64,000 nt of DNA from Candidatus Methylomirabilota bacterium (GCA_036556905.1 DATBIM010000156.1:2210-66209); one strand, 5' to 3'; numbered from the stretch's first letter, positions 17,699 to 45,874 are shown. The notes: generated by a model not told the origin, from the letters alone. A program made the numbers and translations.

Positions 17699-19309
17699 AT
17701 GGAGGTGCTGAGCCCGCTGGGGGTGGCTGACACCCGGCCCCGGCCACTGGCCAAGCGTCCGGCCCGCCTCGCCGGCTGCCGGGTCGCCGTCCTCGACAAC
17801 TCCAAGCCCAACGCCGACGTGCTGCTGGAACGGCTGGCCGAGCTGCTCGTAGCCCGGGCCGGTGTGGCCGAGGTCCGCCGCTGGCGCAAGCCGGGCAGCT
17901 CCCGAGCGGCCGAGGAGATCGACGCGATCGTCGCGGCCGCCGACGTCGTCCTCACCGGCTCGGCGGACTGAGGCTCCTGCACGTCGTGGAGTATCCACGA
18001 CGCGGCGCAGATCGAGGGGCGGGGAGTCCCCACCGTTGTCCTCGGCACCGACCTGTTCGCCTCGCTGGGCCACAGTGCCGCCGCGGCGCTGGGCCTGCCC
18101 GACCTGCCCCTCGTGACCGTCGCCCACCCGATCGGGGGCGTCGATCCCCATGCCGTGGCGGCCCGCGCTGACGGCGTCCTCGACGCCGTCGTGGCGGCGC
18201 TGACCCGAGCGCCGGCGCACTCGCCCGCCGCGGCGCCCGGTGCGGTGGCCCTGCTGGCCGCCCCCGATGACATCGACGCCTTTCAGGAATTTGCTCTGGC
18301 CGAGGGCTGGGGCGACGGGCTTCCCGTGCTCCCGCCCACTCCTGAGCGAGTCGCGCGTGTGCTGGCCGGCCAGCGTGGCGACCAGGTCGTGGCCACCTTG
18401 CCGCCTCGGCGGGGCGTGGCGACGCTCGAGGCCATTGCGGTCAACGCCGCGCTGGCCGGCGCCGGGCCCGAGCAACTGCCCCTGATCGTGGCCGCCGTGC
18501 GCGCCGTCGCCGACCCCCGCTTCAACCTGGACGCGATCCAGGCCACCACCCACCCCTGCACGCCGCTGGTGATCGTCAACGGCCCCCTCGCTCGGCGCCT
18601 GGGCGTGCACAGCGGAGCCAACGCGCTGGGCCAGGGTCACCGGGCCAATGCGGTCGTGGGCCGCGGGCTGCGGCTCACGCTGCAGAACGTGGGCGGGGCC
18701 CGGGCCGGGCAGGGCGACCGCGCCACGCTCGGGCACCCCGGCAAGTTCACGTACTGCGTCGCCGAGAACGAGGCGGAGTCGCCCTGGGAGCCGCTGCACG
18801 TGGAGCGCGGCTTCGATGCCGCGGCGAGCTGCGTGACGGTGTGCGGTGCCGAGGCGCCCCACAACGTGAATGACCACGGCTCGACGTCCGCCGAGGCTTT
18901 GCTGCTGGCCCTGGCCGGCACCGCGGCGACCACCGGCAACAACAACATCTATCTGGGCGGCGAGCCGCTGATCCTCCTCGGTCCCGAGCACGCGCGGACG
19001 ATCGCCGGATCGGGCTGGTCCAAGCGCGATCTCAAGCGAGCATTGTTCGACCGCGCGCGGGTGCGCCTGGGGGCCTTCAGCGCGGAGAACCTGGCCCGCT
19101 TCGCCACGATCGATCCCGCGCGCTTCCGCGGCCGCTCGCCCGACGACACCGTCACCGTGGCCGTCACGCCGGACGACGTGATGGTGGTGGTGGCGGGGGG
19201 GCCCGGCAAGCACTCCGCCATCGTCCCCACGTTCGGCGCGACGCGCGCGGTGACCGTGCCCGTCGAGGCCCCGGGCGACGCGCCGGTTGCGGGGCCCCGC
19301 TCGCGGTGA
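17699..19309 (+). CDS. UGSC-motif selenoprotein fused to a ~400 aa domain of unknown function (in-frame UGA = Sec at 17969-17971)
   Basis: Same frame continues through TGA 17969-71 (…DVVLTGSAD-U-GSCTSW…). Both flanks are homologous to the stand-alone UGSC protein at 20429-20959. A hairpin follows the UGA. RBS AGGAGG before ATG 17699. Confidence 0.6.
17978..18010 (+). promoter_or_regulatory. candidate bacterial SECIS hairpin for UGA 17969
   Basis: GTCGTGG-AGTAT-CCACGAC (extendable), starting about 11 nt after the UGA. Confidence 0.5.
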
Positions 19310-19340
19310 TAGCGTGGCCGGCGCGAAAGGGAGGAGCCTC

Positions 19341-20432
19341 ATGGCGATCACGTTGACCTCACCGCGCCACGCCGTGGCGAACCTGGATGACGCTATCGAG
19401 TTCTGCTTCCAGCAGGGCTGGAGCGACGGGCTGCCCGTGGTGCCCCCCACCGAGGCCAAGGTGCAGGCCATGCTGGACGCCGCCAAGCTCGATCCCCAGC
19501 ACCAGGTGGCCTACGTGGAGCACCGGGCGGTATCCATCACCGCCGAGAAGGTGGCGATCAACGCGGTGATGGCCGGTTGCCTGCCCGCGTACATGCCGGT
19601 GGTGGTGGCTGCCGTCGAGGCCATCGGGGATCCTCGGTGGTCGTATCATGGCCCGGGCACCTCCACCGCCGGCGCCGGCGTGCTCATGATCGTGAACGGT
19701 CCCATTCGCCGTGAGCTCGACATCAACTGCGGCGACAACCTCTTCGGCCCGGGCTGGCGGTCGAATCTGACCATCGGCCGCGCCGTCCGCCTGATCATGC
19801 GCAACGTGTGCGGCTCGTGGCCGGGACGGCTCGACCGGGGGACGCTGGGCCATCCCGGCAAGCTCTCCTACGTCATCGGGGAAAACGAGGAGGAGAGCCC
19901 GTGGCCGCCGCTCCACGTCGAGCGGGGGCTGCGCCGCGAGCAGAGCGCGGTGACGGTGATGGCGGCGGAGGCGCCGCACCAGATCTACAACCAGCTCTCC
20001 AGCACCGCCGAGGGCGTCCTCACCACGCTCAGCGACGCCATGCGGATCTCCGGCAACGTGATGGGGCAGCCGCACTATGCCCTGATCCTCGCCGGCGAGC
20101 ACATGCGGACGATCGCCGGGAGCGGGTGGGGCAAGGACCAGATCCGGCGCTTCGTGTGGGAGCACACGCAGAACTCCCACGCCCACCTGCGGCGGACCGG
20201 TCGTATGGCGGGTCCCGTGCAGCCCGGCGACGAGGACAGGCTGCGACCGCTGGTGGAGAGCCCGGATGATATCCTGGTTGTGGCCGCCGGAGGCCGGGCC
20301 GGAAGCTTCTCGGCCTACATCCCCGGCTGGGGCAGCAAACGTTCCTCGCAGGCGGTGACAGTGGTGGTCGGAGGTGAGGTGAGCCGCTCGCCGAGCCGAC
20401 CCTTCAACGAGGCAAAGGAGGTCAGGCAATGA
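19341..20432 (+). CDS. conserved protein of unknown function, paralog of the C-terminal domain of the 17699-19309 gene
   Basis: Shared blocks with the upstream gene: GW(S/G)DGLPV(V/L)PPT, TLGHPGK..Y…ENE.ESPW.PLHVERG, TIAGSGW. RBS AGGGAGG before ATG 19341. Confidence 0.55.
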   Translation: MAITLTSPRHAVANLDDAIEFCFQQGWSDGLPVVPPTEAKVQAMLDAAKLDPQHQVAYVEHRAVSITAEKVAINAVMAGCLPAYMPVVVAAVEAIGDPRWSYHGPGTSTAGAGVLMIVNGPIRRELDINCGDNLFGPGWRSNLTIGRAVRLIMRNVCGSWPGRLDRGTLGHPGKLSYVIGENEEESPWPPLHVERGLRREQSAVTVMAAEAPHQIYNQLSSTAEGVLTTLSDAMRISGNVMGQPHYALILAGEHMRTIAGSGWGKDQIRRFVWEHTQNSHAHLRRTGRMAGPVQPGDEDRLRPLVESPDDILVVAAGGRAGSFSAYIPGWGSKRSSQAVTVVVGGEVSRSPSRPFNEAKEVRQ

Positions 20433-20959
20433 TCGAGATCCTCGACCCTACCACCCCGGCCGCCCGCCAGGCCATCGCCTATGCGCCGCGGCCCGGATCA
20501 CTCACGGGCAAGCGTGTCGCGTTGATCGAGAACACCAAGTTCAACTCCGATCGGCTGCTCCAGAAGATCGGCGACATCATGGTCAGGGAGTATGGGGCCG
20601 CCTCCACCCGGATGTGGCGCAAGAAGAACGCCAGCGTGCCGGCGCACGAGGAGATCATCGCCGAGGTGCGCCGAACCTGCGACGTGGTCGTCGCCGGCAT
20701 CGGTGATTGAGGGTCCTGCTCGTCGGGCAGTGTGCTCGACGGAATCGTGCTCGAGAAGGCCGGCGTTCCCTCGGCGTCGATCGTGACCGACGTGTTCGAG
20801 CGGACGGCCCGGGCCATGGCCGAGCAGTGGGGCCTCCCGACCTACCGGTTCCTCATGATGCCGCACCCCATCGCCAACCTCAGCGAGGCCGAGCTGGACC
20901 AGCGAGCTCGCGCGATCGTCTCGGAGGTGGCCAAGCTCCTCCTCCAGGGTCAGGAGTGA
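20429..20959 (+). CDS. UGSC family selenoprotein, stand-alone (in-frame UGA = Sec at 20708-20710)
   Basis: …DVVVAGIGD-U-GSCSSGS… Reading frame continues to 20959. Homologous to both flanks of the UGSC region of the 17699 gene. ATGA overlap with the upstream gene; RBS AGGAGG. Confidence 0.6.
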
Positions 20960-25747: not shown

Positions 25748-26446
25748 GTGCTCCGATCCATGTCGAGAGTACCGATCTCGCTTGCGCTGGCCACCGTGCT
25801 GATCACCGTCGCCACGGGCGTGGCGTATCTCGCCCTGCGCTGGGAGCCGGGGGACGAGACGGCAACCCCGATCGCCGCTCAGCCGCCGCGCGCCGAGCCG
25901 ACGGCGCCTTCAGCGTCGGCCCCGCCGCCGGCGGACACTCCGTCCCCCCGCCCGGCCAAGCCGCGGCCCGGCCGCCAGCTCGCTCTCGACGCCGCCATGC
26001 GCGAGCTCGACCTGATCCAGCCGTCGCGGACGCGCGCCGTGCAGGATTTCACGCTGCCGCTGGTGGGCGGCAAGTCGTTCCGCCTGACCGGCCATCGGGG
26101 GCAGATCCTGCTCATCAATTTCTGGGCGACCTGGTGCCCGCCCTGCCTCGAGGAGATGCCGGCGCTGGAGCGCCTGTGGCGTCAGCATCGGGACCACGGC
26201 TTCGTCCTGCTCGCCGTGTCGCTGGACACCGATTCCGGGCTCGTGGGTCCCTTCCTGGCCCGGCATCGCCTCACCTTCCCGGTCGCGCTCGACCCCAAGT
26301 ACGAGGTGGCCAATCTCTACGGCGTGCGGGCGCTGCCCGCGACCTTCGTCGTCGATCGGCTCGGGAACCTGGCCGCGCTGGCGCTGGGACCGCGAACCTG
26401 GGACAATGACGCGGCGCATTCCCTGGTGGAGGCTCTGGCGAAATAG
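25748..26446 (+). CDS. TlpA/ResA-like thiol:disulfide oxidoreductase (membrane-anchored thioredoxin fold)
   Basis: WATWCPPC active site with an N-terminal TM anchor. Confidence 0.7.
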   Translation: MLRSMSRVPISLALATVLITVATGVAYLALRWEPGDETATPIAAQPPRAEPTAPSASAPPPADTPSPRPAKPRPGRQLALDAAMRELDLIQPSRTRAVQDFTLPLVGGKSFRLTGHRGQILLINFWATWCPPCLEEMPALERLWRQHRDHGFVLLAVSLDTDSGLVGPFLARHRLTFPVALDPKYEVANLYGVRALPATFVVDRLGNLAALALGPRTWDNDAAHSLVEALAK

Positions 26447-26448
26447 GG

Positions 26449-27186
26449 ATGGGACAGTCGGTCGGCGTGGCAGTGGCGTTCAGCGCGGGCCTCTTCTCGT
26501 TCTTGTCGCCCTGCGTGCTGCCGCTGTTCCCCTCGTACCTGTCCTTTATCACTGGCATGTCGGTGGCCGACCTCACGGGCGACATCGCCCCCGCTGCGCG
26601 CCGGCGCGTGCTCCTGCACGCCCTGACCTTCGTGGCCGGCTTCTCGATGGTCTTCATCTCGCTGGGAGCGACCTTCAGCGCGGCCGGGCAGTTCCTGCTC
26701 GAGCATCGTGAGTCGATCCGCCGCCTGGGCGGCGCGCTGATCGTGCTCTTCGGCCTCTACATCGCCGGGGTGTTTCGCCTGGGCCTCTTCGGCCGCACCG
26801 CACAGCTCCAGTTCCGTGAGAAGCCGGCGGGTTATGCTGGCTCGCTCCTGGTGGGCATCACCTTCGCGATTGGGTGGACGCCCTGCGTGGGTCCCATCCT
26901 GGGGGCGATCCTGTCGTTGGCCGGTACCGCGGAGACGGTGCAGCGGGGTGTGGGCCTCCTCATCGCCTATTCGGCGGGCCTGGGTGTGCCCTTCCTGCTC
27001 TCCGCGCTGGCGCTCGGCTCGTTCCTGCGCTTCTTCAAGCGCTACCGCCCGTTCATCCCCGTCGTCGAGCGCGCCGCCGGGGTCCTGCTCGTCGTGGTGG
27101 GCGTGCTCGTCTTCACGAATTACTACACGGTCCTCAACGCCTGGGCCATCTCCCTGACGCCCGAGTGGCTGCTCAAGCGGCTCTAG
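26449..27186 (+). CDS. ccdA: cytochrome c-type biogenesis protein CcdA (DsbD-like thiol-disulfide transporter)
   Basis: FLSPCVLPLFP and …TPCVGPILG… Cys pair. Confidence 0.75.
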   Translation: MGQSVGVAVAFSAGLFSFLSPCVLPLFPSYLSFITGMSVADLTGDIAPAARRRVLLHALTFVAGFSMVFISLGATFSAAGQFLLEHRESIRRLGGALIVLFGLYIAGVFRLGLFGRTAQLQFREKPAGYAGSLLVGITFAIGWTPCVGPILGAILSLAGTAETVQRGVGLLIAYSAGLGVPFLLSALALGSFLRFFKRYRPFIPVVERAAGVLLVVVGVLVFTNYYTVLNAWAISLTPEWLLKRL

Positions 27187-30640: not shown

Positions 30641-30844
30641 ATGGCAGAGCAGAAGAAGAAAGAGACGAGGCCCACCAAGCCCTCCGAGGGCGGCGACGGG
30701 GCGGCGGCAGGCAGCCCGGAGCTGGCCAAGAAGGGCAAGAAGATCAAGGAAGACATCGACAAGCTCCTCGACGAGATCGATGAGATTCTCGAAGAGAATG
30801 CCGAGGAGTTCGTGAAGAGCTACGTGCAGCGGGGAGGCCAGTAG
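30641..30844 (+). CDS. pup: prokaryotic ubiquitin-like protein Pup (C-terminal GGQ)
   Basis: …IKEDIDKLLDEIDEILEENAEEFVKSYVQRGGQ* is near-identical in pattern to the actinobacterial Pup C-terminus. RBS GGAGAG before ATG 30641. Confidence 0.75.
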   Translation: MAEQKKKETRPTKPSEGGDGAAAGSPELAKKGKKIKEDIDKLLDEIDEILEENAEEFVKSYVQRGGQ

Positions 30845-31089: not shown

Positions 31090-32004
31090 ATGGATCTTCG
31101 CCGGCTCGAGGTCTTCGTGAAAGTCGCCGAGCTGGGGAGCTTCTCGCGCGCCGCCGAGGCGCTCTTTCTCACCCAGCCGACGGTGTCCGAGCATGTGCGC
31201 GCTCTCGAGGAGGACCTGGGTGTGCAACTGCTCGATCGCCTGGGCCGGGGAGCCGCCCCCACTCCGGCGGGACAGCTCCTGCTGGGCTACGCCCACCGCA
31301 TCCTGGCACTCATGCGCGAGGCGCGTCAGGCTGTCGATCGATTCCAGGGCCGTTTGCTCGGAGAGCTCATCGTGGGCGGCAGCACCATCCCCGGCGAGTA
31401 CATCCTTCCCGCCCTCATCGGCCAGTTCAAGGCCAAGTATCCCGATATCTCCATCAGCCTGCGCGTCGGTTCCAGCCAGCAGATCAGCGAGTGGGTGGAA
31501 GAGGGTCGGGTGGAGATCGGTGTCGTCGGGGCTCGTCCGGGCAGCCGGGCGCTGGTCGCCCGCGAGTTGATGGCCGACGAGATGGTGATCGTGGTGCCTC
31601 CCGAGCACCCCTGGACCCGACGGCCGAGCGTCGGGCTGGCCGACATCCGCGCGGAACCGCTCCTGCTGCGGGAACGCGGCTCGGGGACGCGGCAAGCGCT
31701 GGAGCGCGCGTTGGCCGAGGCGGGGACGGACCTGAGCGCCTTCCGGGTGGCTGGCGAGATGGGGTCCACCCAGGCGGTGAAGCAGGCGGTGCGAGCCGGG
31801 ATCGGCGTGACATTGCTGTCCAGGCTGGCCGTCGAGGACGAGTGCCGGGCCCGGCTCCTCGTGTGCGTGCGCGTGGAGGGTCTCGACGTTCGCCGGTCGT
31901 TCCACCTGGTGACCCATCGCGAACGCAGTCGCTCGCCGCTGGCGCAGGCCTTCCTGGAGTTCATAGAATCCCAGGCCGCCTCGGGGGCATCGCAAGAGCC
32001 GTGA
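31090..32004 (+). CDS. LysR family transcriptional regulator
   Basis: N-terminal HTH …FSRAAEALFLTQPTVSEHVRALE… and a LysR substrate-binding domain. Confidence 0.8.
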   Translation: MDLRRLEVFVKVAELGSFSRAAEALFLTQPTVSEHVRALEEDLGVQLLDRLGRGAAPTPAGQLLLGYAHRILALMREARQAVDRFQGRLLGELIVGGSTIPGEYILPALIGQFKAKYPDISISLRVGSSQQISEWVEEGRVEIGVVGARPGSRALVARELMADEMVIVVPPEHPWTRRPSVGLADIRAEPLLLRERGSGTRQALERALAEAGTDLSAFRVAGEMGSTQAVKQAVRAGIGVTLLSRLAVEDECRARLLVCVRVEGLDVRRSFHLVTHRERSRSPLAQAFLEFIESQAASGASQEP

Positions 32005-33062
32005 CGGGCAAAGAGATCCGTCTCACCGCCTACGCCTCCTGCGCGGGCTGAGCGTCCAAGATGGCTCCTGGAGATCTCCAGGAGGTGCTGGCCGTGCTCA
32101 GATCCGATCGCCCGACGGCCGCCCACGAGAACCTGCTGGTGGGCCTGGGACGCGCGGACGATGCGGCCGTCTACCGGTTGGCTCCCGATCTGGCTATCGT
32201 CGAGACGCTCGACTTCTTTCCGCCGGTCGTCGATGACCCTTATGTGTGGGGTGCCGTCGCCGCGGCCAATGCCATGTCCGACGTCTATGCGATGGGGGGC
32301 GAGGTGATGTTCGCCCTGGCCATCGCCGGCTTTCCCCGCGACATGCCCAAGTCGATCATCGCCGATGTCTTCCGGGGCGCCGCGGACAAGGTGGCCGAGG
32401 CGGGAGGCGTCGTGGCCGGGGGCCATACCGTCATCGACAACGAGCCCAAGTATGGGCTCTGTGTTACCGGCCGAATCCATCCCGATCGCGTCCTCCTCAA
32501 GGGCGGCCTCCGCCCGGGTGACCGTCTGTTCCTGTCCAAGCCCCTGGGCACCGGCGTCATCACCACGGCGGGCAAGGACGATGCGGCTCCGAGCGATATT
32601 CTGGCCGGCGCCGTCGCCAGCATGCTGAGGCTCAACCGGGTGGCGGCCCAGGTGGCCATTGCCGGCGGCGCCCGGGGCGCGACCGATGTCACGGGGTTCG
32701 GCCTGCTCGGTCACGCCGGCGAGATGGTGGAGGCGTCGGGGGCTGGGATCGAGGTGTCCTCCCGCCGCCTTCCGCTGCTGCCCGGCGCCCTGGCCCTCGC
32801 CGAGAAGGGACACTTCAGCGGGGGGATGAAGCGCAACCGCCGCTACGTCGAGGGCGTGTTCGGGCCCCGGCTCACGATCGACGCCGCGGTGGCTCCCGCG
32901 CTCGCTTCCCTCATGTTCGAGGCAGAGACCTCCGGGGGGCTGCTCTTCTCCGTCACGCCTGACCGGGCCCAGCGCGTGCTGGCCGACTTTGCCACTCGGG
33001 GGGAAACGGGCGTCGAGATCGGCGTCGTCCTCAGCGAGCCGCTGATTCGCGTCGTCCCCTGA
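32001..33062 (+). CDS. selD: selenide, water dikinase (selenophosphate synthetase) SelD with active-site selenocysteine (UGA 32049-32051)
   Basis: GTG 32001 overlaps the LysR stop (GTGA). N-terminus MTGKEIRLTAYASCAG-U-ASK… matches the SelD Sec/Cys loop. Downstream AIR-synthase-like fold. Hairpin after the UGA. Confidence 0.75.
32066..32085 (+). promoter_or_regulatory. candidate SECIS hairpin for selD UGA
   Basis: Perfect inverted repeat CTCCTGGAGA/TCTCCAGGAG, 15 nt downstream of the UGA. Confidence 0.5.
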
Positions 33063-33074: not shown

Positions 33075-33620
33075 CTAGGGCAGAAGCCCTCTCACGCGAG
33101 CCAGAACGTCATCGGTCGCCCAGTCCAGCTCGCCAACGACAGAGTAGCGGACAAGACCATCCGGACCGACCAGGAAGGTGGCTGGCAGCGTACGCACCCG
33201 CCAGGCCTCGATGGCCTCGTGGCGAGGATCGCGCAGCATCGGAAAGTCAACGGGCACGTGCCCCAGAAAGCTATTGATACGGGAGGCCGACTCGCCGTAG
33301 TTGACGCCCAGCACCGCGAAGGGCTGGCCGGCCAGCCGCTCGCGGAGCCGTTGGATCGAAGGCATCTCATCGCGGCAGGGCGGGCACCACGTCGCCCAGA
33401 AGTTGATCAAGACCACGCGGCCCTGGTACCGGGCGAGCGTATGGGTGGTTCCGCCGAGATCCTTGAGCTCCAGCGGTGGCGTTGGTCCGCGCCAGGGCCG
33501 AAACCGATCGACGTTTTCCGCGTCGGCCTGGACCCACAGCGCCAGCACGAGGAGCAGCGCGGCCGTGACGAGGCGCGGGCAGCTCCACCCGGGCGGAAGG
33601 CCGGCCGAGGGGTCAGGCAC
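33075..33620 (-). CDS. TlpA family thiol-disulfide oxidoreductase, secreted
   Basis: FWATWCPPC motif with an N-terminal signal/anchor. Confidence 0.7.
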   Translation of the reverse strand: MPDPSAGLPPGWSCPRLVTAALLLVLALWVQADAENVDRFRPWRGPTPPLELKDLGGTTHTLARYQGRVVLINFWATWCPPCRDEMPSIQRLRERLAGQPFAVLGVNYGESASRINSFLGHVPVDFPMLRDPRHEAIEAWRVRTLPATFLVGPDGLVRYSVVGELDWATDDVLARVRGLLP

Positions 33621-36493: not shown

Positions 36494-37507
36494 ATGACGC
36501 AGGAGGCCAGGGTCCAGGAGTTCGTCGCCGGCTTCGGCGCGCTGCGGAGCGAGGTGGAGAAGATCATCGTCGGGCAGCGCGAGATCATCGATCACGTCCT
36601 CATCGGGATGTTCGCCGGTGGCCATCTGCTCCTGGAGGGCGTGCCGGGCCTGGGCAAGACGCTCCTCATCAAGACGCTAGCCGAAGGGCTGGAGCTGTCC
36701 TTCTCGCGCATCCAGTTCACGCCGGATCTCATGCCGGCCGACATCATCGGCACGAACATCATCGTGGAGGACGCCTCGGGCCGGAAGCACTTCGAGTTCC
36801 AGCACGGGCCCATCTTCGCCCATATTCTGTTAGCCGACGAGATCAATCGGGCCACGCCCAAGACGCAGTCGGCCCTGCTGGAGGGGATGCAGGAAGGCTA
36901 CGTCACCGTGGGCGGGGCCTCCCGGCCGCTGCCGGTCCCGTTCTTCGTCCTGGCCACACAGAATCCCATCGAGATGGAGGGCACCTACCCCTTGCCGGAG
37001 GCCCAGCTGGACCGCTTCATGTTCAAGCTGCGCGTGCGCTATCCCGCCATCGACGAGCTCAACGCGATCATCGATCGCACCACCCAGATCCGTCAGGTGG
37101 CGGTCCAGCGCGTGATGAGCGGGCCCGGTGTGATCGGTTATAGAGAGCTGATCCGCGAGGTGCCCATCGCCTCTCATGTCCGCGACTTCGCGTCGGCGGT
37201 GGTCATGGCTACGCACCCGGAGTGGGAGCACGCCCCCGACATCACCCGGCGCTTCGTCCGCTACGGAGCCAGCCCCCGGGGGGCTCAGGCGCTGGTGCTG
37301 GGGGCCAAGGTGCGGGCCTTGTGTCAGGGGCGATTCAATGTGAGCGTGGAGGATCTCAAGGCGCTGGCCGCGCCGGCGCTCCGGCACCGCGTGATCCTGA
37401 ACTTCGAAGGTGAGGCCGAGGCCGTGGACACCGACACGCTCATCGGCGATATCGTCGCCGGCGTCGAGCAACACGCGACGCAGGGCAAGGAGCTCTTTCT
37501 CCGCTGA
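36494..37507 (+). CDS. MoxR family AAA+ ATPase
   Basis: GVPGLGKT Walker A, …LLADEINRATPKTQSALLEGMQE…. Confidence 0.85.
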   Translation: MTQEARVQEFVAGFGALRSEVEKIIVGQREIIDHVLIGMFAGGHLLLEGVPGLGKTLLIKTLAEGLELSFSRIQFTPDLMPADIIGTNIIVEDASGRKHFEFQHGPIFAHILLADEINRATPKTQSALLEGMQEGYVTVGGASRPLPVPFFVLATQNPIEMEGTYPLPEAQLDRFMFKLRVRYPAIDELNAIIDRTTQIRQVAVQRVMSGPGVIGYRELIREVPIASHVRDFASAVVMATHPEWEHAPDITRRFVRYGASPRGAQALVLGAKVRALCQGRFNVSVEDLKALAAPALRHRVILNFEGEAEAVDTDTLIGDIVAGVEQHATQGKELFLR

Positions 37508-37525
37508 TCGCACCTGGAGGGCCTG

Positions 37526-38986
37526 ATGGCCGATAGGGACGAGCCTCTCCCCGAGCTCGACGCGCTGGTACGCCGCATCGTCAGCCAGGTGCGCTGGCGT
37601 CGGGCCGAGCACTTCGCGCTGCGCGGCGTGTTCTGGGGCGCCGTCGCTGGGGTCATCGTCCTGCTCCTGAAAGTTGTGGTCGGCGCCTACTGGGCGTCCG
37701 TCCTGGCCGGCGCCTTCGTCGTGGCTGGCCTCCTGGGGGGCGGCTGTTGGGGCCTGGCCCGCCGGGTGGCCCCGCTCGCGGCCGCCCGGCTCGGTGACCG
37801 GGCCTTCGGGCTGGAGGACCGTGTGGCCACCGCCCTGGAGTGGGCGGGCCGGGCCGACCGGACACCGCTGGTGGATTCGCTCATCGCCGACGCTCGCACG
37901 CGGGCGTCCCGGTTGACCCCACGTCAGATCGTGCCACGGGTACTGCCCCGCGAGGTGAAGTGGCTGCCGGCACCGGCGCTGGCGGCCCTCGTCCTGGTGC
38001 TGAGCCCTCCGGTGCCGCTCCCGGCCGGCCGGCTGTTCGACCTGCCGACCGGGGCCGAGGAGGCCGAGTCAACGGACCGATCGGCTGGTGACCTGCTTCA
38101 GGAAGACAAGCGGCCGGCGGCGAAGGATCCCCTCCGCCGCCCCGCTCTGGAGGAGCGCGACTACATGCCGCGGACGGCCGGGGGCGGAGCCCCGACCGCG
38201 GGAGATCTGAGCGCGATCTTCAAGGACACCTCGCTCGGCAACCAGCGGCCCGACTTCAACAGCTTCCTCAAGAAGGGCGACGAGCGCCTCAAGCTGCTCG
38301 AGCAGGTGGACCGCCTGCCCGATCTGCAGTCGGACTTCACGAACAATCAGTACAAGATGGTGTTCCGTAAGTCCAAGGCCCTGCGGGGCGGCCTGCGCCC
38401 GGATCAGATCTCGCCGCAGAAGCTGCGCGAGCTGCTCGAGGAGATGGAGCGCCTGGGCCGCAAGGGCGGCAACTGGAGTTCCGACGTGGGCGAGGGCATG
38501 GAGGCCCTGGAGTACGGCGACCAGGATCGCGCCATGGACGCCATGGAGAAGGCCCTCAACAAGCTCCGGGCCATGGAGGAAGGAAAGCGCTCGGGCCGGG
38601 GGCTTCGCGGTGGTCGCGAGACCGATCGCGACCGGGAGCGTGGCCGGGGCGGATCGAGCGCGGGTGGCGAGGATCCGGATTTCGGTGAGAGCGAAGGGCT
38701 GTTGCCCGGCAAGGGCAAGAGCCCTTCGCCGAAGGGCGAGGCCTCCAAGCGCTTGCGCGCCAACCCTTATGACGTGGGCGTGGAGGGCGAGTCCCGGCCG
38801 GGCCGCAAAGACGGCTATGACACGAACCTCACCGGGCGCGCCGGCCACACACCCTCCCGCCTCACTTACCTGGGGGTCATCGGCCAGTACCGCAAGGCGA
38901 TGGAGGATGCGCTGGTCCGCGAACAGGTGCCCCGTGACTACCACGAGCAGATTCGCGACTACTTCCAGTCCCTCGACGAGCGCTGA
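37526..38986 (+). CDS. hypothetical membrane protein with a long charged low-complexity region (Bat-cluster associated)
   Basis: Two N-terminal TM helices, RDRERGRGG-rich centre, conserved-looking C-terminus. Lies between MoxR and DUF58. Confidence 0.4.
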   Translation: MADRDEPLPELDALVRRIVSQVRWRRAEHFALRGVFWGAVAGVIVLLLKVVVGAYWASVLAGAFVVAGLLGGGCWGLARRVAPLAAARLGDRAFGLEDRVATALEWAGRADRTPLVDSLIADARTRASRLTPRQIVPRVLPREVKWLPAPALAALVLVLSPPVPLPAGRLFDLPTGAEEAESTDRSAGDLLQEDKRPAAKDPLRRPALEERDYMPRTAGGGAPTAGDLSAIFKDTSLGNQRPDFNSFLKKGDERLKLLEQVDRLPDLQSDFTNNQYKMVFRKSKALRGGLRPDQISPQKLRELLEEMERLGRKGGNWSSDVGEGMEALEYGDQDRAMDAMEKALNKLRAMEEGKRSGRGLRGGRETDRDRERGRGGSSAGGEDPDFGESEGLLPGKGKSPSPKGEASKRLRANPYDVGVEGESRPGRKDGYDTNLTGRAGHTPSRLTYLGVIGQYRKAMEDALVREQVPRDYHEQIRDYFQSLDER

Positions 38987-38989
38987 GCG

Positions 38990-39880
38990 GTGCCGGCGGC
39001 CACCCACCACGGCTTTTTCAGCTCGGAGTTCCTGGCCCAGCTCGAGCGCTTGACCCTGGCCTCCCGCCGCACCTTCCGGGGACGGGTGAAGGGCGAGCGG
39101 CGGAGCCCCCGCAGGGGGCAGAGCGTCGAGTTCGCCGACTACCGGCCCTACGGGATCGGAGACGACCTCCGGTACGTCGACTGGAACATCTACGGGCGGC
39201 TGGAGCGTCTGCACGTGAAGCTGTTCGTCGACGAAGAGGATCTCTGCGTGCATCTGCTCGTGGACGGGTCGAGCTCTATGGCCTTCGGCCAGCCGACCAA
39301 GCTGCGCTACGCGGCCCGGGTGGCGGCGGCGCTCGGCTTCGTGGGGCTGGTGAGCCTGGAGCGCGTGGGCATCGGTGTGCTTCGCGAGAAGGTGAGCGAA
39401 GGGTGGGCGCCCACTCGCGGGCGTAACCAGTTCGTGACGCTGGTGGACTTCCTCTCGCGACTCGAGGCCGGGGGGGCCACCAGCCTCAACCGCGGCCTGA
39501 GCGACTACGCCGTGCGCGCCCGCGAGCCGGGGCTGGCCATTCTGATCTCCGACCTGCTAGACCCTGCCGGCTTCGAGAGCGGGGTCCGGGCGCTGCTCGA
39601 GCGCCGGTTCGAGGTGCACGTGATCCACGTGCTGGCCGCGGAGGAGCTGCACCCCACCCTGGCCGGAGACCTCCGCCTGCACGACAGCGAGACCGACGCG
39701 ACGCTCGAGATCACCATCGACGGCGAGGCGCTGAGTGGTTATCGGCAGCGGCTCGGGCAGTTCCTGCAGCGGGTGGAGGAGTTCTGCCGTTCTCAGGAGA
39801 TCGGCTACCGGCGGGTGAGCACCGAGATCCCGGTGGAGGAGTTCGTCCTGTCCCACCTGCGGGGTCTGGTGCTGGGGTGA
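38990..39880 (+). CDS. DUF58 domain protein (MoxR-associated, VWA-like)
   Basis: …EFADYRPYGIGDDLRYVDWNIYGR… DUF58 signature. Confidence 0.75.
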   Translation: MPAATHHGFFSSEFLAQLERLTLASRRTFRGRVKGERRSPRRGQSVEFADYRPYGIGDDLRYVDWNIYGRLERLHVKLFVDEEDLCVHLLVDGSSSMAFGQPTKLRYAARVAAALGFVGLVSLERVGIGVLREKVSEGWAPTRGRNQFVTLVDFLSRLEAGGATSLNRGLSDYAVRAREPGLAILISDLLDPAGFESGVRALLERRFEVHVIHVLAAEELHPTLAGDLRLHDSETDATLEITIDGEALSGYRQRLGQFLQRVEEFCRSQEIGYRRVSTEIPVEEFVLSHLRGLVLG

Positions 39881-39890
39881 GGGAGGACCG

Positions 39891-42800
39891 GTGAGCTTCC
39901 TGACCCCTCTGGCCTTTGCCCTGCTCGGGCTGACCCTGCCCCTGGTATTGCTCTACTTCCTCAAGGTGCGACGGCGTCAACAACGGGTACCCAGCCTCCT
40001 CTTCTGGGAGGCGACGCTGCACGACCGTCAGGCCTCGGCATTCTTCCAGCGGTTGCAGCGCGATCCCCTCCTCATCCTCCAGATCCTGGCCCTGCTGGCG
40101 CTGACGCTGGCCCTGGCCCGGCCGGCCCTCACGGTGACCGGTGACGGTGCTCGCAAGGTGGCGGTGGTTCTGGACGGTTCCGCCTCGATGAAAACGCGCG
40201 ATGGCGGTGGGTCCCGGTTCGCCGCGGCCAGATCCGAAGCGGCGGCCATGGTGAGTCGGCTGGGTGAGGGGGCCGAGGTGCTGGTGGTGGAGACCGGCGC
40301 GCACCCCCGCGTACTGGCGCCGCTCTCGCGGGACCGCGATCGGGCTCTGGCCGCCATCCGTTCGGCACAGGCGCGCGACCTTCCCAATCGCCTGCCCGAG
40401 GCGCTGCGGACGGCGCGCGCGCTCGTGGGGGCCGACCCGACGGCCGAGATCTACGTGTACACGGACGGCGCGTTTACGCTGCCGCGGGCGCCGGAGACCA
40501 CCGACGGCCGGCTCCGCTGGATCGCGGTGGGAGGCGGAGGCCGCAACGTCGGCCTCACCAACCTGGCGGTGCGCAAGAGTTACCAGGGGTCCCCGGAGTA
40601 CCAGGCCTTCGCCTCCCTGGTGAACTATTCGTCGGACACCCAGACCTTCACGCTCAGGCTGGAGCTCGACGGCACGCTCATCGCCGAGAAGTCCTTGAGC
40701 CTGGAGCCCAACATCCGCCGTTCGGTGGTCCTGCCCTTCAGCCACACGGGCGGGGGCACCCTGAAGGCCGGCATCGACGTGCGCGACGACCTGGCTTCGG
40801 ACAACGTCGCCTACGCCGTGCTGCCGCCGCCCCGCAAGATCCAGGTCTTGCTGGTGAGTCGCGGCAATCTGTTCCTGGAAAAAGTCCTCCGCACCGATCC
40901 TCAGGTCGCGCTGGAGGTCCGCACGCCCGATCTGTACCAGGGCGGTATGGCCGAGGCCGACATCGTGATGCTGGATTCGACCGCGCCCGCCCGGGTGGGG
41001 CCGGGGCGGTTCTTCTTCGTCAACGTGGTGCCGCCCGACGTGCCGCTGGAGGCGTTGGGCCGTATTGAGCGGCCGACCATCATGGACTGGGACCGGGCCC
41101 ATCCGATCATGCGGCACGTCGAGCTGGCCAAGGTGGTCATCGAGGACGCGCTGCGCATCCGGCCTCTGGCTCCGGGGCGGCCGCTGGTGGAGGCGATCGG
41201 TGGTCCGCTCGTCTACGCCCTCGAGGAGGCGGAGCGCAAGGCCGTCTTCATCGGCTTCGACCTGTTCAAGACCGACTTCCCGCTGCGGGTGGCCTTCCCG
41301 CTGATCCTGTCCAACAGCCTGCGCTGGCTCCACCCGGCGGCCCTGGACCAGTCCAGCCTGCAGCTGGCTTCCGGGCAGCCGATCCTGCTGCCGGTCGAGC
41401 ACGGCGTGAGCTCGGTCACCGTCACCACGCCAGGCGGGCGCAGCACGAAGGCGCAGATCACCCGGGGCGTGGTGAGCTACGCCGAGACCGACGAGGTGGG
41501 GATCTATCGCTTCACGACCTCGCGGGGTGAGATGCGAGTGGCCGTCAACCTCGCTGACGCCGAAGAGTCCCACGTGCAGCCCCGGCCGCTGCCGGCGTCC
41601 GCGGGCCCGCCCCCGGAGGCCACGGTGCCGGTACCGGTGCAGCGGGAGCTGTGGCAGCTGTTCGTCCTGCTGGCGGTGATCCTGCTCGCCCTGGAAGGCG
41701 TGCTCTACTGGCGGCGTCAGAGCGGGCACTGGCCGATGCTGCCCCGGGTTTCCGGTGATCGCTGGGCGCTGGGGCTCCGAGCCGCCCTGCTCGTCGTGCT
41801 GTGCTCCACGCTGTTGAAGCCCACGCTGCCGCGGCTCGTCGACCGCCAGAACGTCATCTTCCTTTTCGATCACTCGGACAGCGTGAGCCTGGCCGCGCGA
41901 GAGCGCGCCTGGCGGTTCGCCGCGGAATCGATGAAGTCCATGCGTCCCGGTGATCGTGCCGGTGCGGTGGTGTTCGGCGAGGACGCAGTGGTCGATCAGC
42001 CGCTGGCCTCGCGGCCCACCCTGGAGCGTCCCCGGAGCCCGGTGGCCCCCCGCGGGACCAACCTGTTCCAGGCGGTCCAGCTGGCCCTGGCCACGCTGCC
42101 TCCCGGACACGCCAACCGCATCGTCATGCTGACCGACGGTCGCCAGACGAGCGGCAACGCGCTGGCGGCGGCCCAGGCGGCCAAGGACGCCGGCGCTGAC
42201 ATCTACTACGTGCCGGCGCCGCTCACCTTCGAGCAGGAGGTGGTGGCCGAATCCCTCGTGCTTCCACAGGAGGTGAAGTTCGGCGAGCCGTTCCAGGCCA
42301 AAGTGGTGGCGTGGAGCCTCAAGGACACCCAGGGGCGGCTCTCGCTCTTCCGCAACGGAGAGTTCCTGGGCTCCCAGGTAATCCGGCTCAACACGGGCAA
42401 GAACGTGTTCAGCTACCGCCAGTCGCTGGACTCCAGCGGGATCCACGTCTACCAGGCGGCCATCGAGGTCGACGGGGACACGATCGAAGACAACAACCGG
42501 GCGGTCGGTACGGTGGTCGTGCGAGGTCGGCCGCAGGTGCTGCTGGCCGAGAAGGACCGGAGCCACGCCCAGTCTCTGGTGGCCGCCCTGCGCTCGCAGA
42601 ACATCGAGGTGACCGTCGTCGAGGCCAACGGGATCCCCAAAGACGTGGCCGGCCTGCAGAAGTACGACGGTCTCATCCTCTCCAACATCTCGTCGCTCAA
42701 GCTCACCCGGGTCCAGATGGCGAACATTCGGGACTACGTCCGCGACTACGGGGGCGGCTTGATCATGGTGGGCGGTGAGGAGAGCTTCGGCCTCGGCGGC

Positions 42801-44300
42801 TACTACCGTACGCCGGTCGAGGAGGCGCTGCCCGTCACCATGGAGGTCAAGCAGAAGGTCGAGATCCCCAGCCTGGCCGTCGTCCTCTCGATCGACCGAT
42901 CGGGCTCGATGGCCATGTCGACCGGCGACGAGAAGGTCACCAAGCTGGACGTGGCCAAGGAAGCGGCCCACCTCGTCGTCGATCTCCTCGACGAACGCAA
43001 CGAGGTCGGGGTGCAAAGCTGGGACACCGAGTTCATCTGGGATGCCGCAATCCGGCCCGCTCGCGATCGGTCCGCCGTCCACCATGCCATCGCCACGATC
43101 AAGGCGGGTGGGGGAACGGACGGCTATCCGGCGCTCAAGGATACCTACTCGGTGCTCTTCGAGCGCCCGGCGCTCCTCAAGCACGTCATCTTCCTGTCCG
43201 ACGGCCAGATGACGCGTGGTGACTTCACGGGCCTGCTCCGCCGCATGGCCAAGGACAAGATCACGGTGTCGACGGTGGCCATCGGCAAGGACGCCGATCT
43301 GCAGCTCATGGTCGACATCGCCAAGTGGGGGCGAGGTCGCTTCTACTACACCGAGGACTCCCAGACCATCCCCAGGATCTTCACCCTGGAAACCCAGCTG
43401 GCCTCCAAGGCCTCGCTGATCGAGCAGCCCTTCCGGCCCCAGCTCACGGCACCTGGCCACGAGGCGATGCAGGACATCGAATGGCGCACGGCCCCGCCGC
43501 TGGGAGGCTATGTGGCCACGACGGTCAAAGGGACCGCCGAGCTCGTGCTCATGAGCCATCAGGAAGATCCGGTCCTGGCCACGTGGCGTTACGGGCTCGG
43601 GCGAACGGCGGCGTTCACCTCCGACGCCAAAGCCAAGTGGGGCGTCCTCTGGCTGCGCTGGCAGAATTTCAACAAGTTCTGGGCGCAGCTCACTCGCTGG
43701 ACCCTGCGCAGCTCGACGCGCTCGGATACGGTGGTTCTGGTGGAACGTCGCGATGGCATGGGGGAGGTCGTCGTCGATGCCGTGGACGTCAAAGGGGAGT
43801 TCATCAACTTCCTGGACTCCCAGGTCGGGGTGGTGGCGCCCAACCGGGAACGATCGGTCATCGATCTCGAGCAGGTGGCGCCGGGACGGTACCGGGGTCG
43901 CTTCCCGGCCTCCCAGGAGGGCGTCTACCTGATCGGCACGGCGCAGCGTCGGAACGAGCGGGTGATCGGCTCTCAATTGGCAGGACTAGTGATACCGTAT
44001 GCTCAGGAGTTCCGGGACCTCGGGGTGGATGAGACAGCGCTGCGGGAGCTGGCCGAGCTGTCCAACGGTGGCCCGCTGACTCAGCCCGGGGAGATATTCC
44101 TGAAGGCGCGCCGCGAGTCCCGGATCCCCGTGGACATGTGGCCCTGGCTTGTTGGCGCTGTGGCGGTCCTTTTGATTCCAGAGATTGCGCTCCGGCGGCT
44201 CGGCCCCGGGGCCCTGCGGTGGGGCCGGGCGCTCTTGTCCCGGCGCCCCGCAGGTGAGGGCGATGCACGGCCGGCGCGAGGAGGACATGATGGTGCGTGA
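39891..44300 (+). CDS. BatA-like aerotolerance/VWA giant fusion protein (1469 aa)
   Basis: N-terminal MSFLTPLAFALLGLTLPLVLLYFLK (BatA N-terminal domain). Three VWA-like segments (VAVVLDGSASM, VIFLFDHSDSVSL, AVVLSIDRSGSMA). Mid-protein TM helices and a GATase1-like segment. Confidence 0.7.
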   Translation: MSFLTPLAFALLGLTLPLVLLYFLKVRRRQQRVPSLLFWEATLHDRQASAFFQRLQRDPLLILQILALLALTLALARPALTVTGDGARKVAVVLDGSASMKTRDGGGSRFAAARSEAAAMVSRLGEGAEVLVVETGAHPRVLAPLSRDRDRALAAIRSAQARDLPNRLPEALRTARALVGADPTAEIYVYTDGAFTLPRAPETTDGRLRWIAVGGGGRNVGLTNLAVRKSYQGSPEYQAFASLVNYSSDTQTFTLRLELDGTLIAEKSLSLEPNIRRSVVLPFSHTGGGTLKAGIDVRDDLASDNVAYAVLPPPRKIQVLLVSRGNLFLEKVLRTDPQVALEVRTPDLYQGGMAEADIVMLDSTAPARVGPGRFFFVNVVPPDVPLEALGRIERPTIMDWDRAHPIMRHVELAKVVIEDALRIRPLAPGRPLVEAIGGPLVYALEEAERKAVFIGFDLFKTDFPLRVAFPLILSNSLRWLHPAALDQSSLQLASGQPILLPVEHGVSSVTVTTPGGRSTKAQITRGVVSYAETDEVGIYRFTTSRGEMRVAVNLADAEESHVQPRPLPASAGPPPEATVPVPVQRELWQLFVLLAVILLALEGVLYWRRQSGHWPMLPRVSGDRWALGLRAALLVVLCSTLLKPTLPRLVDRQNVIFLFDHSDSVSLAARERAWRFAAESMKSMRPGDRAGAVVFGEDAVVDQPLASRPTLERPRSPVAPRGTNLFQAVQLALATLPPGHANRIVMLTDGRQTSGNALAAAQAAKDAGADIYYVPAPLTFEQEVVAESLVLPQEVKFGEPFQAKVVAWSLKDTQGRLSLFRNGEFLGSQVIRLNTGKNVFSYRQSLDSSGIHVYQAAIEVDGDTIEDNNRAVGTVVVRGRPQVLLAEKDRSHAQSLVAALRSQNIEVTVVEANGIPKDVAGLQKYDGLILSNISSLKLTRVQMANIRDYVRDYGGGLIMVGGEESFGLGGYYRTPVEEALPVTMEVKQKVEIPSLAVVLSIDRSGSMAMSTGDEKVTKLDVAKEAAHLVVDLLDERNEVGVQSWDTEFIWDAAIRPARDRSAVHHAIATIKAGGGTDGYPALKDTYSVLFERPALLKHVIFLSDGQMTRGDFTGLLRRMAKDKITVSTVAIGKDADLQLMVDIAKWGRGRFYYTEDSQTIPRIFTLETQLASKASLIEQPFRPQLTAPGHEAMQDIEWRTAPPLGGYVATTVKGTAELVLMSHQEDPVLATWRYGLGRTAAFTSDAKAKWGVLWLRWQNFNKFWAQLTRWTLRSSTRSDTVVLVERRDGMGEVVVDAVDVKGEFINFLDSQVGVVAPNRERSVIDLEQVAPGRYRGRFPASQEGVYLIGTAQRRNERVIGSQLAGLVIPYAQEFRDLGVDETALRELAELSNGGPLTQPGEIFLKARRESRIPVDMWPWLVGAVAVLLIPEIALRRLGPGALRWGRALLSRRPAGEGDARPARGGHDGA

Positions 44301-45645
44301 CCTCCGACGAGGATTGACTCTGTCGCTGACCATCCTGGTCGCGGTCCTGGGGCCGCCGGGCCTGGCCGGTGCCGCCCCTGCCGCTAAACCCCAGGTGGTG
44401 CTGGTCATGCCGTTCGACGCCAGCGGGACCGGGGCCGATTGGGCGTGGGTGGGCCAGGCAGTGGCCGAGGTGCTGACCCTGGGCTTGAGCCAGCATCCGG
44501 CGTTCGTCCAGATCGACCCGGCTCGGCTTCGGGCCTTCGGACAGCCGGAGGCCTGGGGCGAGAGCGCCGTTGTCCAGGCCGCCCGCTCGTTACGCGCCGA
44601 CACGGCGCTGTTCGGAACGGTAACCCGCGCCGGCTCCGACTTCACCATTCGGGCCCGGCTGCTCGAGGTCAAGGGCACGGGAGCCGATGTCATCGGGCTC
44701 GAGCCGCTGACGTTCCCCGGGGACGAGCTGCTGGCTCAGCTGCCCGGCCTGGTCAGCACCTACGCGCGGACGATGAAAGTCCCGCTGACCGACGCGGAAA
44801 CCGCCCGCATCGAGAAGGCGGCGCGGCCGACCAACACGCTGAGGGCCTTCGAGCTCTACGCGCGCAGTCAGCAGGCGGCCTACCGCGGCGGCCAGGAGGG
44901 CAACGAGAGCGCGGCTGACCTGCTGGCCCGGGCCATCGAGGCCGACCCGAGCTTTGTGGTCGCTCAATACTCCCTAGGCCGGGTGCATCAGGCGCTGGGC
45001 AACCGCTGGAAGGCGGCGGCGCAGTATCGGGCCGCCACTCAGCTCGATCCCCTCTACCCCGAGCCCTACAAGGCCCTGGGCGACTTGCTGCTGTTGGCGC
45101 CGCGCCGGCTCTTTGACCAAGCCGTGGAAGCCTACCAGAAGGCCATCGAGCGACGCCCGTTCTACGCCGACGCCCACGTGGGACTGGGTGACGCTCTGGC
45201 CGCCAAGGGAGATGTGGACGGGGCCATCAACGCCTACCAGCGGGCCCTGACCTTCCACACCGCCAACCCGCGGGTCCATGTGAGCCTCGGCAAGATTTAT
45301 TACAGCGAGAAGGGGCTCTATTACGAGTCCGTGAATGCTTACAAACGCGCGATCGATCTGGACGCGCGGTCGATCGAGGCCCGGATGGGCCTGGGCGAAG
45401 TCTACGAGGAAAAGGGTCTGTACAAGGAAGCGATCGACGAGTACCGGCGGGTGATCGAGACCGAGCCGTTGCACGCGGAGGCCCTCTACAATCTGGCCCT
45501 GGTCTACGAGAAGGTGGACCCGCGTGAGGCGATCACCCACTGGGAGCGCTACATCGCGCTGGCCTCGCAGATTCCCGCGCAGAAGGATTGGGTCGACGTC
45601 GCCCGCCAGCACCTGCGCAAGCTGCGGAACCAGGTCAAGGACTAG
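44287..45645 (+). CDS. TPR-repeat protein with signal peptide (BatC-like)
   Basis: N-terminal signal peptide and multiple 34-aa TPR repeats (…AYQKAIE…P.YA.AH..LG…). ATG overlaps the upstream stop. Confidence 0.7.
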   Translation: MMVRDLRRGLTLSLTILVAVLGPPGLAGAAPAAKPQVVLVMPFDASGTGADWAWVGQAVAEVLTLGLSQHPAFVQIDPARLRAFGQPEAWGESAVVQAARSLRADTALFGTVTRAGSDFTIRARLLEVKGTGADVIGLEPLTFPGDELLAQLPGLVSTYARTMKVPLTDAETARIEKAARPTNTLRAFELYARSQQAAYRGGQEGNESAADLLARAIEADPSFVVAQYSLGRVHQALGNRWKAAAQYRAATQLDPLYPEPYKALGDLLLLAPRRLFDQAVEAYQKAIERRPFYADAHVGLGDALAAKGDVDGAINAYQRALTFHTANPRVHVSLGKIYYSEKGLYYESVNAYKRAIDLDARSIEARMGLGEVYEEKGLYKEAIDEYRRVIETEPLHAEALYNLALVYEKVDPREAITHWERYIALASQIPAQKDWVDVARQHLRKLRNQVKD

Positions 45646-45874
45646 CCAGGAGCTCCTGCAGTCGGGCCTTGTCGAACCCGACGACGACCTGACCGTCCAC
45701 CACGATCACCGGGATGGACATGCGTCCGGTGAGCCGGATGAGCTCCTCTCGGGCTTCAGCGCTCTCGACCACGTTGACATCCTGGTAGGCGACGTTCTGA
45801 GACGAAAGAAACTCTTTCGCCGCGCGGCATGGGCCTCAGGTGGGACTCGAATACACGACGACGACGCGCGCCAT
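45635..45874 (-). CDS. glutaredoxin-like (NrdH/YruB-type) selenoprotein, active site U-G-P-C (UGA at 45836-45838)
   Basis: Minus-strand ATG 45874: MARVVVVYSSPT-U-GPCRAAKEFL…IPVIVVDGQVVVGFDKARLQELL. The frame is continuous through the UGA. Classic small Grx fold with Sec in place of the first Cys. Confidence 0.6.
45803..45819 (-). promoter_or_regulatory. candidate SECIS hairpin for the Grx-like UGA
   Basis: mRNA CGAAAGA-GUU-UCUUUCG, about 16 nt after the UGA. Confidence 0.4.

Follow-up and report, generated by a model that had tools for sequence, protein, structure and literature searches.

Four predicted UGA-recoded selenoprotein genes and a UGSC-X gene module in a Methylomirabilota genome segment

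Can a stretch of bacterial DNA in which several reading frames are interrupted by TGA encode genuine selenoproteins when no gene for selenocysteine (Sec) insertion lies beside them, and what would such proteins do? The question is raised by a segment of 64,000 nucleotides (GCA_036556905.1 DATBIM010000156.1:2210-66209; hereafter the window), which is chromosomal DNA of a Methylomirabilota ("Ca. Rokubacteria") soil bacterium with a GC content of 69%. An initial annotation had placed four UGA-Sec genes in the window: selD, two genes for UGSC proteins and one for a glutaredoxin-like (Grx-like) protein. It is very probable, judging from sequence comparisons, that these encode four genuine selenoproteins (SelD, a YruB-type Grx-like protein, UGSC, and a fusion of UGSC to a domain that we call X), made by recoding of UGA that depends on a selenocysteine insertion sequence (SECIS), with the Sec machinery encoded elsewhere in the genome and UGSC acting as the redox partner of X.

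Six-frame translation with TGA read as U recovered all of the motifs at the places given by the initial annotation. Exactly four genes in the window carry an in-frame TGA: UGSC1, UGSC2, selD, and the YruB-type Grx-like gene. These genes, their motifs and the genes that adjoin them are as follows.

17699..19309, + strand: UGSC1-X1 fusion selenoprotein gene, 536 amino acids; Sec TGA at 17969-17971, true stop TGA at 19307-19309; UGSC at about residues 1-170, then a linker, then X at about residues 190-536
17969-17980, + strand: UGSC motif of UGSC1
19341..20432, + strand: X2, a stand-alone X family member, 363 amino acids; its stop overlaps the UGSC2 start
20429..20959, + strand: UGSC2 selenoprotein gene, 176 amino acids; Sec TGA at 20708-20710, true stop at 20957-20959
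20708-20719, + strand: UGSC motif of UGSC2
31090..32004, + strand: gene of a LysR regulator associated with selenium metabolism; stop overlapping the GTG of selD (GTGA)
32001..33062, + strand: selD (selenide, water dikinase), 353 amino acids, GTG start; Sec17 encoded by TGA 32049-32051
32040-32051, + strand: CAGU motif of selD
45635..45874, - strand: glutaredoxin-like (YruB-type) selenoprotein gene, 79 amino acids; Sec TGA at 45838-45836 (residue 13)
45838-45827, - strand: UGPC motif of the Grx-like gene

The UGSC1 ATG at 17699 stands behind a GGAGGAG ribosome-binding site, the UGSC2 ATG at 20429 has AAAGGAGG ahead of it, and the Grx-like ATG at 45874 has GGAGGAGG ahead, with a GGAGGAG ribosome-binding site; the ATGs of UGSC1 and the Grx-like gene are the ends of the span 17699 to 45874. 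Three systematic scans of the window, for an in-frame TGA with coding-like GC content at third codon positions on both sides, for an N-terminal TGA, and for a TGA with a hairpin, yielded no fifth Sec gene.

With Sec written as Cys, the products of all four genes scored above curated family cut-offs. UGSC1 and UGSC2 reached 137.5 and 144.7 bits with NF041046 (cut-off 125), and 170 and 207 bits with PF24696. The selD product scored 347.6 bits with TIGR00476 (cut-off 125) and contains PF00586 and PF02769 (AIRS, AIRS_C). The Grx-like protein passed TIGR02196 narrowly (90.6 bits, cut-off 88.55), with 73 bits for PF00462, and fell below the cut-off of NF041212 (Uxx-star; 63.3 vs 66 bits), a family whose Sec lies three residues from the C-terminus whereas that of the Grx-like protein is N-terminal. 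The LysR regulator adjoining selD scored 305.6 bits with NF040786 (cut-off 250).

Sec-containing SelD, UGSC proteins and Grx-like selenoproteins have been known since the Sargasso and Global Ocean Sampling (GOS) selenoproteome studies (PMC2398784; PMC13188914). UGSC2 matches the UGSC (seleno)protein family described by Zhang and Gladyshev (Sargasso/GOS; NF041046; PF24696) in motif, size and domain, a family found mostly with Sec and more rarely with Cys in GOS (255 Sec vs 21 Cys forms; PMC2398784). The Grx-like protein shares a small Grx fold and an N-terminal U-x-x-C in place of CxxC with YruB (TIGR02196) and with the selenoprotein glutaredoxin of Clostridium oremlandii (Kim et al. 2011, cited in PMC13188914), but it comes from a different phylum and has the motif UGPC. 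The window SelD is like other Sec-containing SelD proteins (TIGR00476; for example the Haemophilus influenzae type) in family, in Sec at the catalytic Cys position with a SECIS hairpin just downstream, and in having Cys orthologs in other phyla; it differs in that its gene is coupled to a LysR regulator, not to selA/selB, and in that the hairpin sequence is lineage-specific. The UGPC motif resembles the CGPC motif of thioredoxin. The Sec of SelD occupies the catalytic Cys/Sec site of the N-terminal glycine-rich loop (cf. E. coli SelD Cys17), and not a classical thiol-redox motif; the local motif is GAGCGCK in E. coli, while the window selD has SCAGUASK.

Each of the four Sec TGAs is followed, 9-14 nt downstream, by a perfect hairpin of 8-10 bp with a loop of 3-4 nt in which G comes first (GUA, GUG, GAUC, GUU).

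17982..18002, + strand: SECIS-like hairpin of UGSC1, CGUCGUGGA-GUA-UCCACGACG, 10 nt after UGA
20720..20742, + strand: SECIS-like hairpin of UGSC2, UCGUCGGGCA-GUG-UGCUCGACGG, 9 nt after UGA
32065..32084, + strand: SECIS-like hairpin of selD, CUCCUGGA-GAUC-UCCAGGAG, 13 nt after UGA
45801..45821, - strand: SECIS-like hairpin of the Grx-like gene, GGCGAAAGA-GUU-UCUUUCGUC, 14 nt after UGA

Whole-segment folding z-scores were uninformative at 69% GC, and the background of positioned hairpins was used in their place. Such hairpins follow 0.8% of all positions in the window and 1.2% of all TGA trinucleotides, so that their presence at 4/4 Sec sites against a background of ~1% corresponds to p ~2e-8. 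The terminator TGAs of the same four genes have no hairpin of 6 bp or more. We compared the UGSC genes with a syntenic locus (L009) in the NCBI metagenome-assembled genome (MAG) GCA_035709005.1, which has ~84-92% amino-acid identity across the module. The UGSC1 and UGSC2 hairpin stretches, ~30 nt each, are invariant between the two genomes, while synonymous sites flanking the UGSC1 hairpin differ; direct comparison of the UGSC2 hairpin with that of UGSC1 shows one pair changed from G-C to C-G and one from U-A to G-U. For selD, 99.4% of cells were paired across 42 distinct Methylomirabilota sequences, against at most 60% in slid controls. The outermost pair changes from C-G to G-C in 8 of these sequences, a change that entails replacing Ala by Gly and Glu by Asp, synonymous sites adjoining the hairpin vary freely, and the hairpin is absent from Cys-type orthologs. 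For the Grx-like gene, 89.3% of cells were paired across 29 distinct sequences (slid controls, at most 70%), with compensatory changes at 2 pairs. Judged on these alignments, the stronger hairpin signal is conservation at synonymous sites, not covariation.

Sec-type selD genes of Chloroflexota (L058-L072) are without the Methylomirabilota hairpin, and in many of them a stem of the sequence GGCGCAG-GUG-CUGCGCC is present farther from the TGA, at ~30 nt. The SECIS appears to have been replaced between the two phyla with the Sec codon kept. Five further contigs, L025 and L029 (Binatia), L043 (Acidoferrum), L051 (Nitrosotalea) and L057 (Limnocylindria), carry a selD 67-75% identical to that of the window together with the Methylomirabilota-specific hairpin, although their MAG labels are those of other phyla, one of them an archaeon; these contigs are probably mis-binned Rokubacteria.

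The initial annotation had proposed that Sec replaces Cys in a thiol-redox motif in every case. Cys orthologs do occur in all three families, and only the description of the SelD site as such a motif has to be set aside. For UGSC, the Sec position is taken by the first Cys of CGSC in 71/71 full-length UGSC2 homologs; wherever the source is named, it belongs to the Burkholderiales and the protein is titled "UGSC family (seleno)protein". More than 40 UGSC2 stubs stop exactly at ...GIGD, just ahead of the TGA, the named ones being from Methylomirabilota. The selD comparison covered 75 loci from labelled genomes. TGA stands at the Sec codon in 54 of them, among which are the ~41 Methylomirabilota MAGs without exception (CAGUASKM, at 66-86% identity); a TGC or TGT codon (CAGCASKM) takes its place in the remaining 21, which come mostly from Gemmatimonadota. 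Among 69 metagenomic relatives of the Grx-like gene, the codon is TGA in 46 and TGT or TGC in 23 (CGYC, CGWC, CPWC). Synonymous and non-synonymous codon differences from L009 numbered 24 and 15 upstream of the TGA and 24 and 14 downstream in UGSC1, and 24 and 11 upstream and 17 and 7 downstream in UGSC2. These counts point to purifying selection before as well as after the TGA in the two UGSC genes, the only ones measured.

Reading through the Sec codon of UGSC1 altered the picture of the locus. The initial annotation spoke of two UGSC proteins; both belong to the family, but UGSC1 is not a small UGSC protein: it stays open to 536 amino acids without a stop and is a UGSC-X fusion. Its C-terminal ~345 residues (X1) are 41% identical to X2 (E 1e-76). 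Since X1 and X2 are paralogs and the X2 stop overlaps the UGSC2 start, the locus has the arrangement [UGSC1-X1][X2][UGSC2]. Alternatively, UGSC1 and X1 could be separate polypeptides, with X1 translated from an internal GTG and the fusion a mere shared frame. In-frame GTGs are present at 18113, 18191 and 18245, and X2 and many other X proteins stand alone, but the linker has no start codon with a Shine-Dalgarno site ahead of it. The fusion is also in frame in L009, and ~100 X1-type open reading frames (ORFs) from Methylomirabilota metagenomes all start within the C-terminal half of UGSC, and therefore no stop ever separates UGSC from X1. Finally, other lineages have full-length Cys-type UGSC-X fusions (CGSC or CGNC, 533-561 amino acids) for which gene calling gives one ORF. 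We regard separate polypeptides as improbable, and on these comparisons the UGSC1-X1 fusion appears real.

X has no sequence match in Pfam, NCBIfam or the Protein Data Bank (PDB), profile search included, and the same sequence and profile searches of Pfam and the PDB with UGSC returned nothing besides UGSC itself. A search for X2 homologs gave more than 7,900 matches, and the X family comprises 5,282 clusters at 50% identity (E <=1e-3), 1,239 of them with E <=1e-30. Its architectures include X alone, UGSC-X, AhpC/TSA-Redoxin(CxxC)-X, NifU-like-UGSC-X and tandem X-X, across phyla. Since X is repeatedly fused either to UGSC or to a thioredoxin-fold CxxC domain, UGSC is suggested to be its redox partner. 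The X-UGSC stop/start overlap occurs in Methylomirabilota and also in Burkholderiales, among them Advenella kashmirensis and Paraburkholderia sediminicola; here the overlapping UGSC gene is of Cys type and the X product is 62% identical to X2. There a third gene follows UGSC(Cys), an ORF of 82-91 amino acids with the motif AC-x-[DE]-C-LVPK, again with overlapping stops and starts. The Burkholderiales units of X, UGSC(Cys) and small ORF lie at the following positions.

L014, 4970-6826
L015, 4940-6779
L178, 5970-7827
L179, 5958-7803

Genes for acyl-CoA dehydrogenase, CoA-transferase, CoA ligase, electron transfer flavoprotein (ETF) and TctC flank the unit, and a gene for a TrxB-type flavoprotein (CATC) divergently adjoins it in 2/4 loci (L014, L178). 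The AC-x-[DE]-C-LVPK motif recurs at the N-terminus of a triple fusion protein (P0491). Neither the small CxxC ORF nor TrxB has a counterpart in the window.

We folded two proteins with AlphaFold2: X2, and P0241, a Cys homolog of UGSC that is 66% identical to UGSC2. The X2 model reached a predicted local distance difference test (pLDDT) score of 84.4 and a predicted template modelling (pTM) score of 0.87. The P0241 model (pLDDT 88.6) consists of five beta-alpha repeats that build a flavodoxin-like sandwich of five strands, and C-G-S-C lies where beta3 passes into alpha3. Its best PDB matches were flavodoxin-like domains with template modelling (TM) scores of up to 0.48. UGSC had earlier been guessed in the literature to be thioredoxin-like in fold, an assignment also implied by the initial annotation. 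The model of the Cys homolog lacks the mixed sheet of thioredoxins (beta-alpha-beta-alpha-beta-beta-alpha, CxxC at the alpha1 N-terminus), and the fold predicted for UGSC is flavodoxin-like rather than that of thioredoxin.

From gene fusions and gene order, UGSC is most likely a dedicated thiol/selenol redox partner of the putative enzyme X. A wider proposal, which we advance tentatively and consider somewhat less than evenly balanced, is that X, UGSC and, in Proteobacteria, the ~85-residue AC-x-[DE]-C-LVPK protein form a widespread thiol/selenol-dependent enzyme system. In this system X, representing a new fold family, would carry out catalysis; UGSC would serve it as the dedicated subunit for U/CxxC redox chemistry, a role that a fused thioredoxin-fold domain could take over, and might be reduced by a TrxB-type flavoprotein; and the substrate would be an organic acid or acyl-CoA. 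Methylomirabilota would have duplicated this system and upgraded both copies to Sec. The route from thioredoxin reductase through thioredoxin and selenoprotein A to glycine reductase offers a functional analogy only, in which a small selenol/thiol carrier would act for one dedicated catalytic partner; neither in sequence nor in fold was X/UGSC found to be related to GrdA, GrdB or PrdB. Fig. S1A of the 2008 GOS study (PMC2398784) includes a 'UGSC/Unknown_1' fusion which, like UGSC1-X1, couples UGSC with a conserved domain of unknown nature. Unknown_1 is probably X; it was described there as limited to a few aquatic organisms, whereas X as found here extends over the 5,282 clusters and several architectures.

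Individual members of the X family showed further variation. One UGSC-X fusion (P0219, 482 amino acids) is missing the segment around the Sec site, and others are without a redox motif: P0393 has CGAS, and P0412 and P0497 have no Cys at all. In such motif-less fusions the UGSC domain may be kept for a structural role. The conserved residues of X include two Cys and a cluster of H, E and R, and the two window paralogs differ in the Cys. X2 (19341-20432) keeps the Cys of NAVMAGC and has Val for Cys in Y-C-[IV]-A-E-N-E; X1 (18230-19306) is the reverse, with LAGA and YCVAENE, the conserved Cys being complementary. Tandem X-X proteins of ~713 amino acids exist elsewhere, and together these features of the alignment are a hint of an X1/X2 heterodimer.

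The mechanism that we favor for the four genes runs as follows. One UGA per gene would be read as Sec owing to the short stem-loop with a G-first loop 9-14 nt downstream. This hairpin, in position and form like a standard bacterial SECIS, would recruit SelB with Sec-tRNA(Sec), and the second UGA of each gene, which has no hairpin, would terminate translation. The genes selA, selB and selC would lie elsewhere in the genome, and selD is translationally coupled to the selenium-metabolism LysR regulator. The UGSC genes are part of a duplicated two-component module, [UGSC1-X1 fused][X2][UGSC2], in which U-G-S-C at the strand-to-helix junction of a flavodoxin-like domain would act as the selenol/thiol redox-active partner of X, as fusions and gene order suggest.

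That the window itself is without Sec machinery had been stated by the initial annotation and was borne out by every search: ARAGORN found no tRNA in the window, Rfam at the gathering threshold gave no match, SelA/SelB domains were present in none of its called genes, and E. coli SelA and SelB gave no match by tblastn. We also looked for selA, selB and tRNA-Sec within 10 kb past the right edge of the window and, having examined selD neighbourhoods of 80 genomes overall, in those of the ~41 Methylomirabilota members (up to 10 kb each side), and found none. As positive controls, the same examination placed selA and selB next to selD in a Bacillota MAG (L084) and a tRNA-SeC directly downstream of Cys-type selD in Gemmatimonadota (L074 11019-11115; L076 7214-7310). 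In the literature, selABCD occurs in ~90% of Sec-type genomes with one missing gene allowed, a figure pooled over nine phyla with none specific to Methylomirabilota (PMC13582414). The description of the source as a selenoprotein-rich organism fits its phylum, since one Methylomirabilota MAG is predicted to have 63 selenoprotein genes (2026 review, PMC13188914); Sec-type hydrogenases are also known from Methylomirabilota (PMC13582414). Sec machinery elsewhere in the genome is indirectly supported by the intact Sec-type selD, its selenium regulator, and the literature on the phylum.

Several observations weigh against this account. The genes selA, selB and tRNA-Sec were not seen in the window, in the 10 kb to its right or in the Methylomirabilota selD flanks. 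Covariation in the hairpins is thin, with 1 compensatory pair in selD and 2 in the Grx-like gene, because the stems are nearly invariant, and the UGSC hairpins were compared in two genomes only. The fold search with X2 gave weak PDB matches only (TM <=0.28), to class I fumarate hydratase and Toblerone-fold hydrolases.

A different decoding of the same UGA codons also has to be considered. They could be read through SECIS and SelB as Cys by a tRNA of the tRNA-ReC (SelC*) type, or UGA could be generally reassigned. Certain MAG lineages are described as having tRNA-ReC-like tRNAs that decode a SECIS-dependent UGA as Cys (PMC13582414). However, the intact selD beside a selenium-metabolism regulator argues for selenium use, and tRNA-ReC has been linked mainly to UXXU motifs of other phyla (PMC13582414). 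General reassignment is excluded: true stops in the window are most often TGA (34/56 genes), all four Sec genes also end in it, and these terminators are free of hairpins, so the code is not reassigned and the recoding is site-specific. Decoding as Cys or by reassignment is thus very improbable, and decoding as Sec is retained here.

The initial annotation had further predicted that annotation pipelines would truncate all four genes, and that all four are mis-split by standard ORF calling. We inspected public calls on identical Joint Genome Institute (JGI) metagenome contigs (IMG) and the recorded calls of the NCBI MAG relative. The public calls break every one of the four. UGSC1 was called as a 90-residue ORF and a separate 398-residue "hypothetical", and UGSC2 as products of 93 and 75 amino acids; both are split likewise in the NCBI MAG relative. 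The selD call is a 333-residue ORF with the N-terminus missing, which starts after the Sec codon and therefore loses the catalytic residue, and the Grx-like gene is reduced to a 45-residue stub. Splitting thus applies to UGSC1 and UGSC2, while selD and the Grx-like gene are N-terminally truncated rather than split; in each case the cause is that ordinary callers read Sec codons as stops. That the in-frame TGAs are what the callers take them for, real stops in pseudogenes, assembly errors or truly split genes, agrees with the lack of local Sec machinery but is effectively already refuted and has almost no probability left, given the same TGA in independent assemblies and dozens of species, equal purifying selection on either side of it, positioned hairpins at 4/4 sites, Cys codons in the same column of orthologs, and the loss of the catalytic residue that a truncated SelD would suffer.

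The truncation of Sec genes by annotation pipelines is already well known, as are the gene families and the phenomenon of UGA recoding, and the phylum has already been reported to be selenoprotein-rich, so the novelty is modest. The window offers a clean, multiply verified case in such a phylum, in which standard calling breaks every Sec gene found, and its lineage-specific SECIS hairpins could seed Sec-aware re-annotation of Methylomirabilota MAGs. The link between UGSC and X is the more useful biological lead, as it connects an orphan selenoprotein family of high abundance with a large family that lacks annotation. Since 2005 UGSC has ranked among the most abundant selenoprotein families of the environment and, to our knowledge, it is still without a function. 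X also occurs in Cys-form systems of named culturable genera (Advenella, Paraburkholderia, Janthinobacterium), and its function is therefore experimentally approachable.

Other genes of the window lie close to those described above. One candidate for a further Sec gene, formed by ORFs of 67 and 70 amino acids in the same frame at 30641-31060, was rejected, as TAG stands between them and they encode Pup and a Zn-ribbon protein. The Pup gene (30641-30844, +; 67 amino acids) ends in YVQRGGQ, with PF05639 in the L009 ortholog, and the Zn_ribbon_8 gene (30848-31060, +) follows 3 nt after it and has a Cys-rich tail, SCCGGGCSCH. The two genes are flanked by a dCTP deaminase gene on one side and by the LysR-selD pair on the other, and the window has no gene for Pup ligase or the proteasome. 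Two regions carry thioredoxin-fold genes with an ordinary WCPPC, 25748-27186 (+) and 33075-33620 (-), AhpC/TSA-like and ResA-like; one of these genes forms a pair with a DsbD_TM gene, and the other comes directly after selD. Since these thioredoxin-fold genes keep WCPPC, Sec use in the window is selective.

The Grx-like selenoprotein gene is convergent with a MoxR-DUF58-BatA/VWA-TPR ('Bat'-like aerotolerance) operon at 36494-45645 (+), which includes a BatA/VWA protein of 1,469 amino acids, and the 3' ends of the two overlap by 11 nt. A complete iron-sulfur cluster (ISC) operon at 47072-52553 (+), comprising Rrf2/IscR, IscS, IscU, IscA, HscB, HscA, Fdx and IscX, lies 1.2 kb away from the Grx-like gene. 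It is followed at 52760-55083 by a second cysteine desulfurase and NifU_N pair, together with a divergent trio of DsrE, a weakly DsrE-like ORF of 118 amino acids, and an ORF of 75 amino acids. This ISC and DsrE neighbourhood may be related to sulfur or selenium trafficking.

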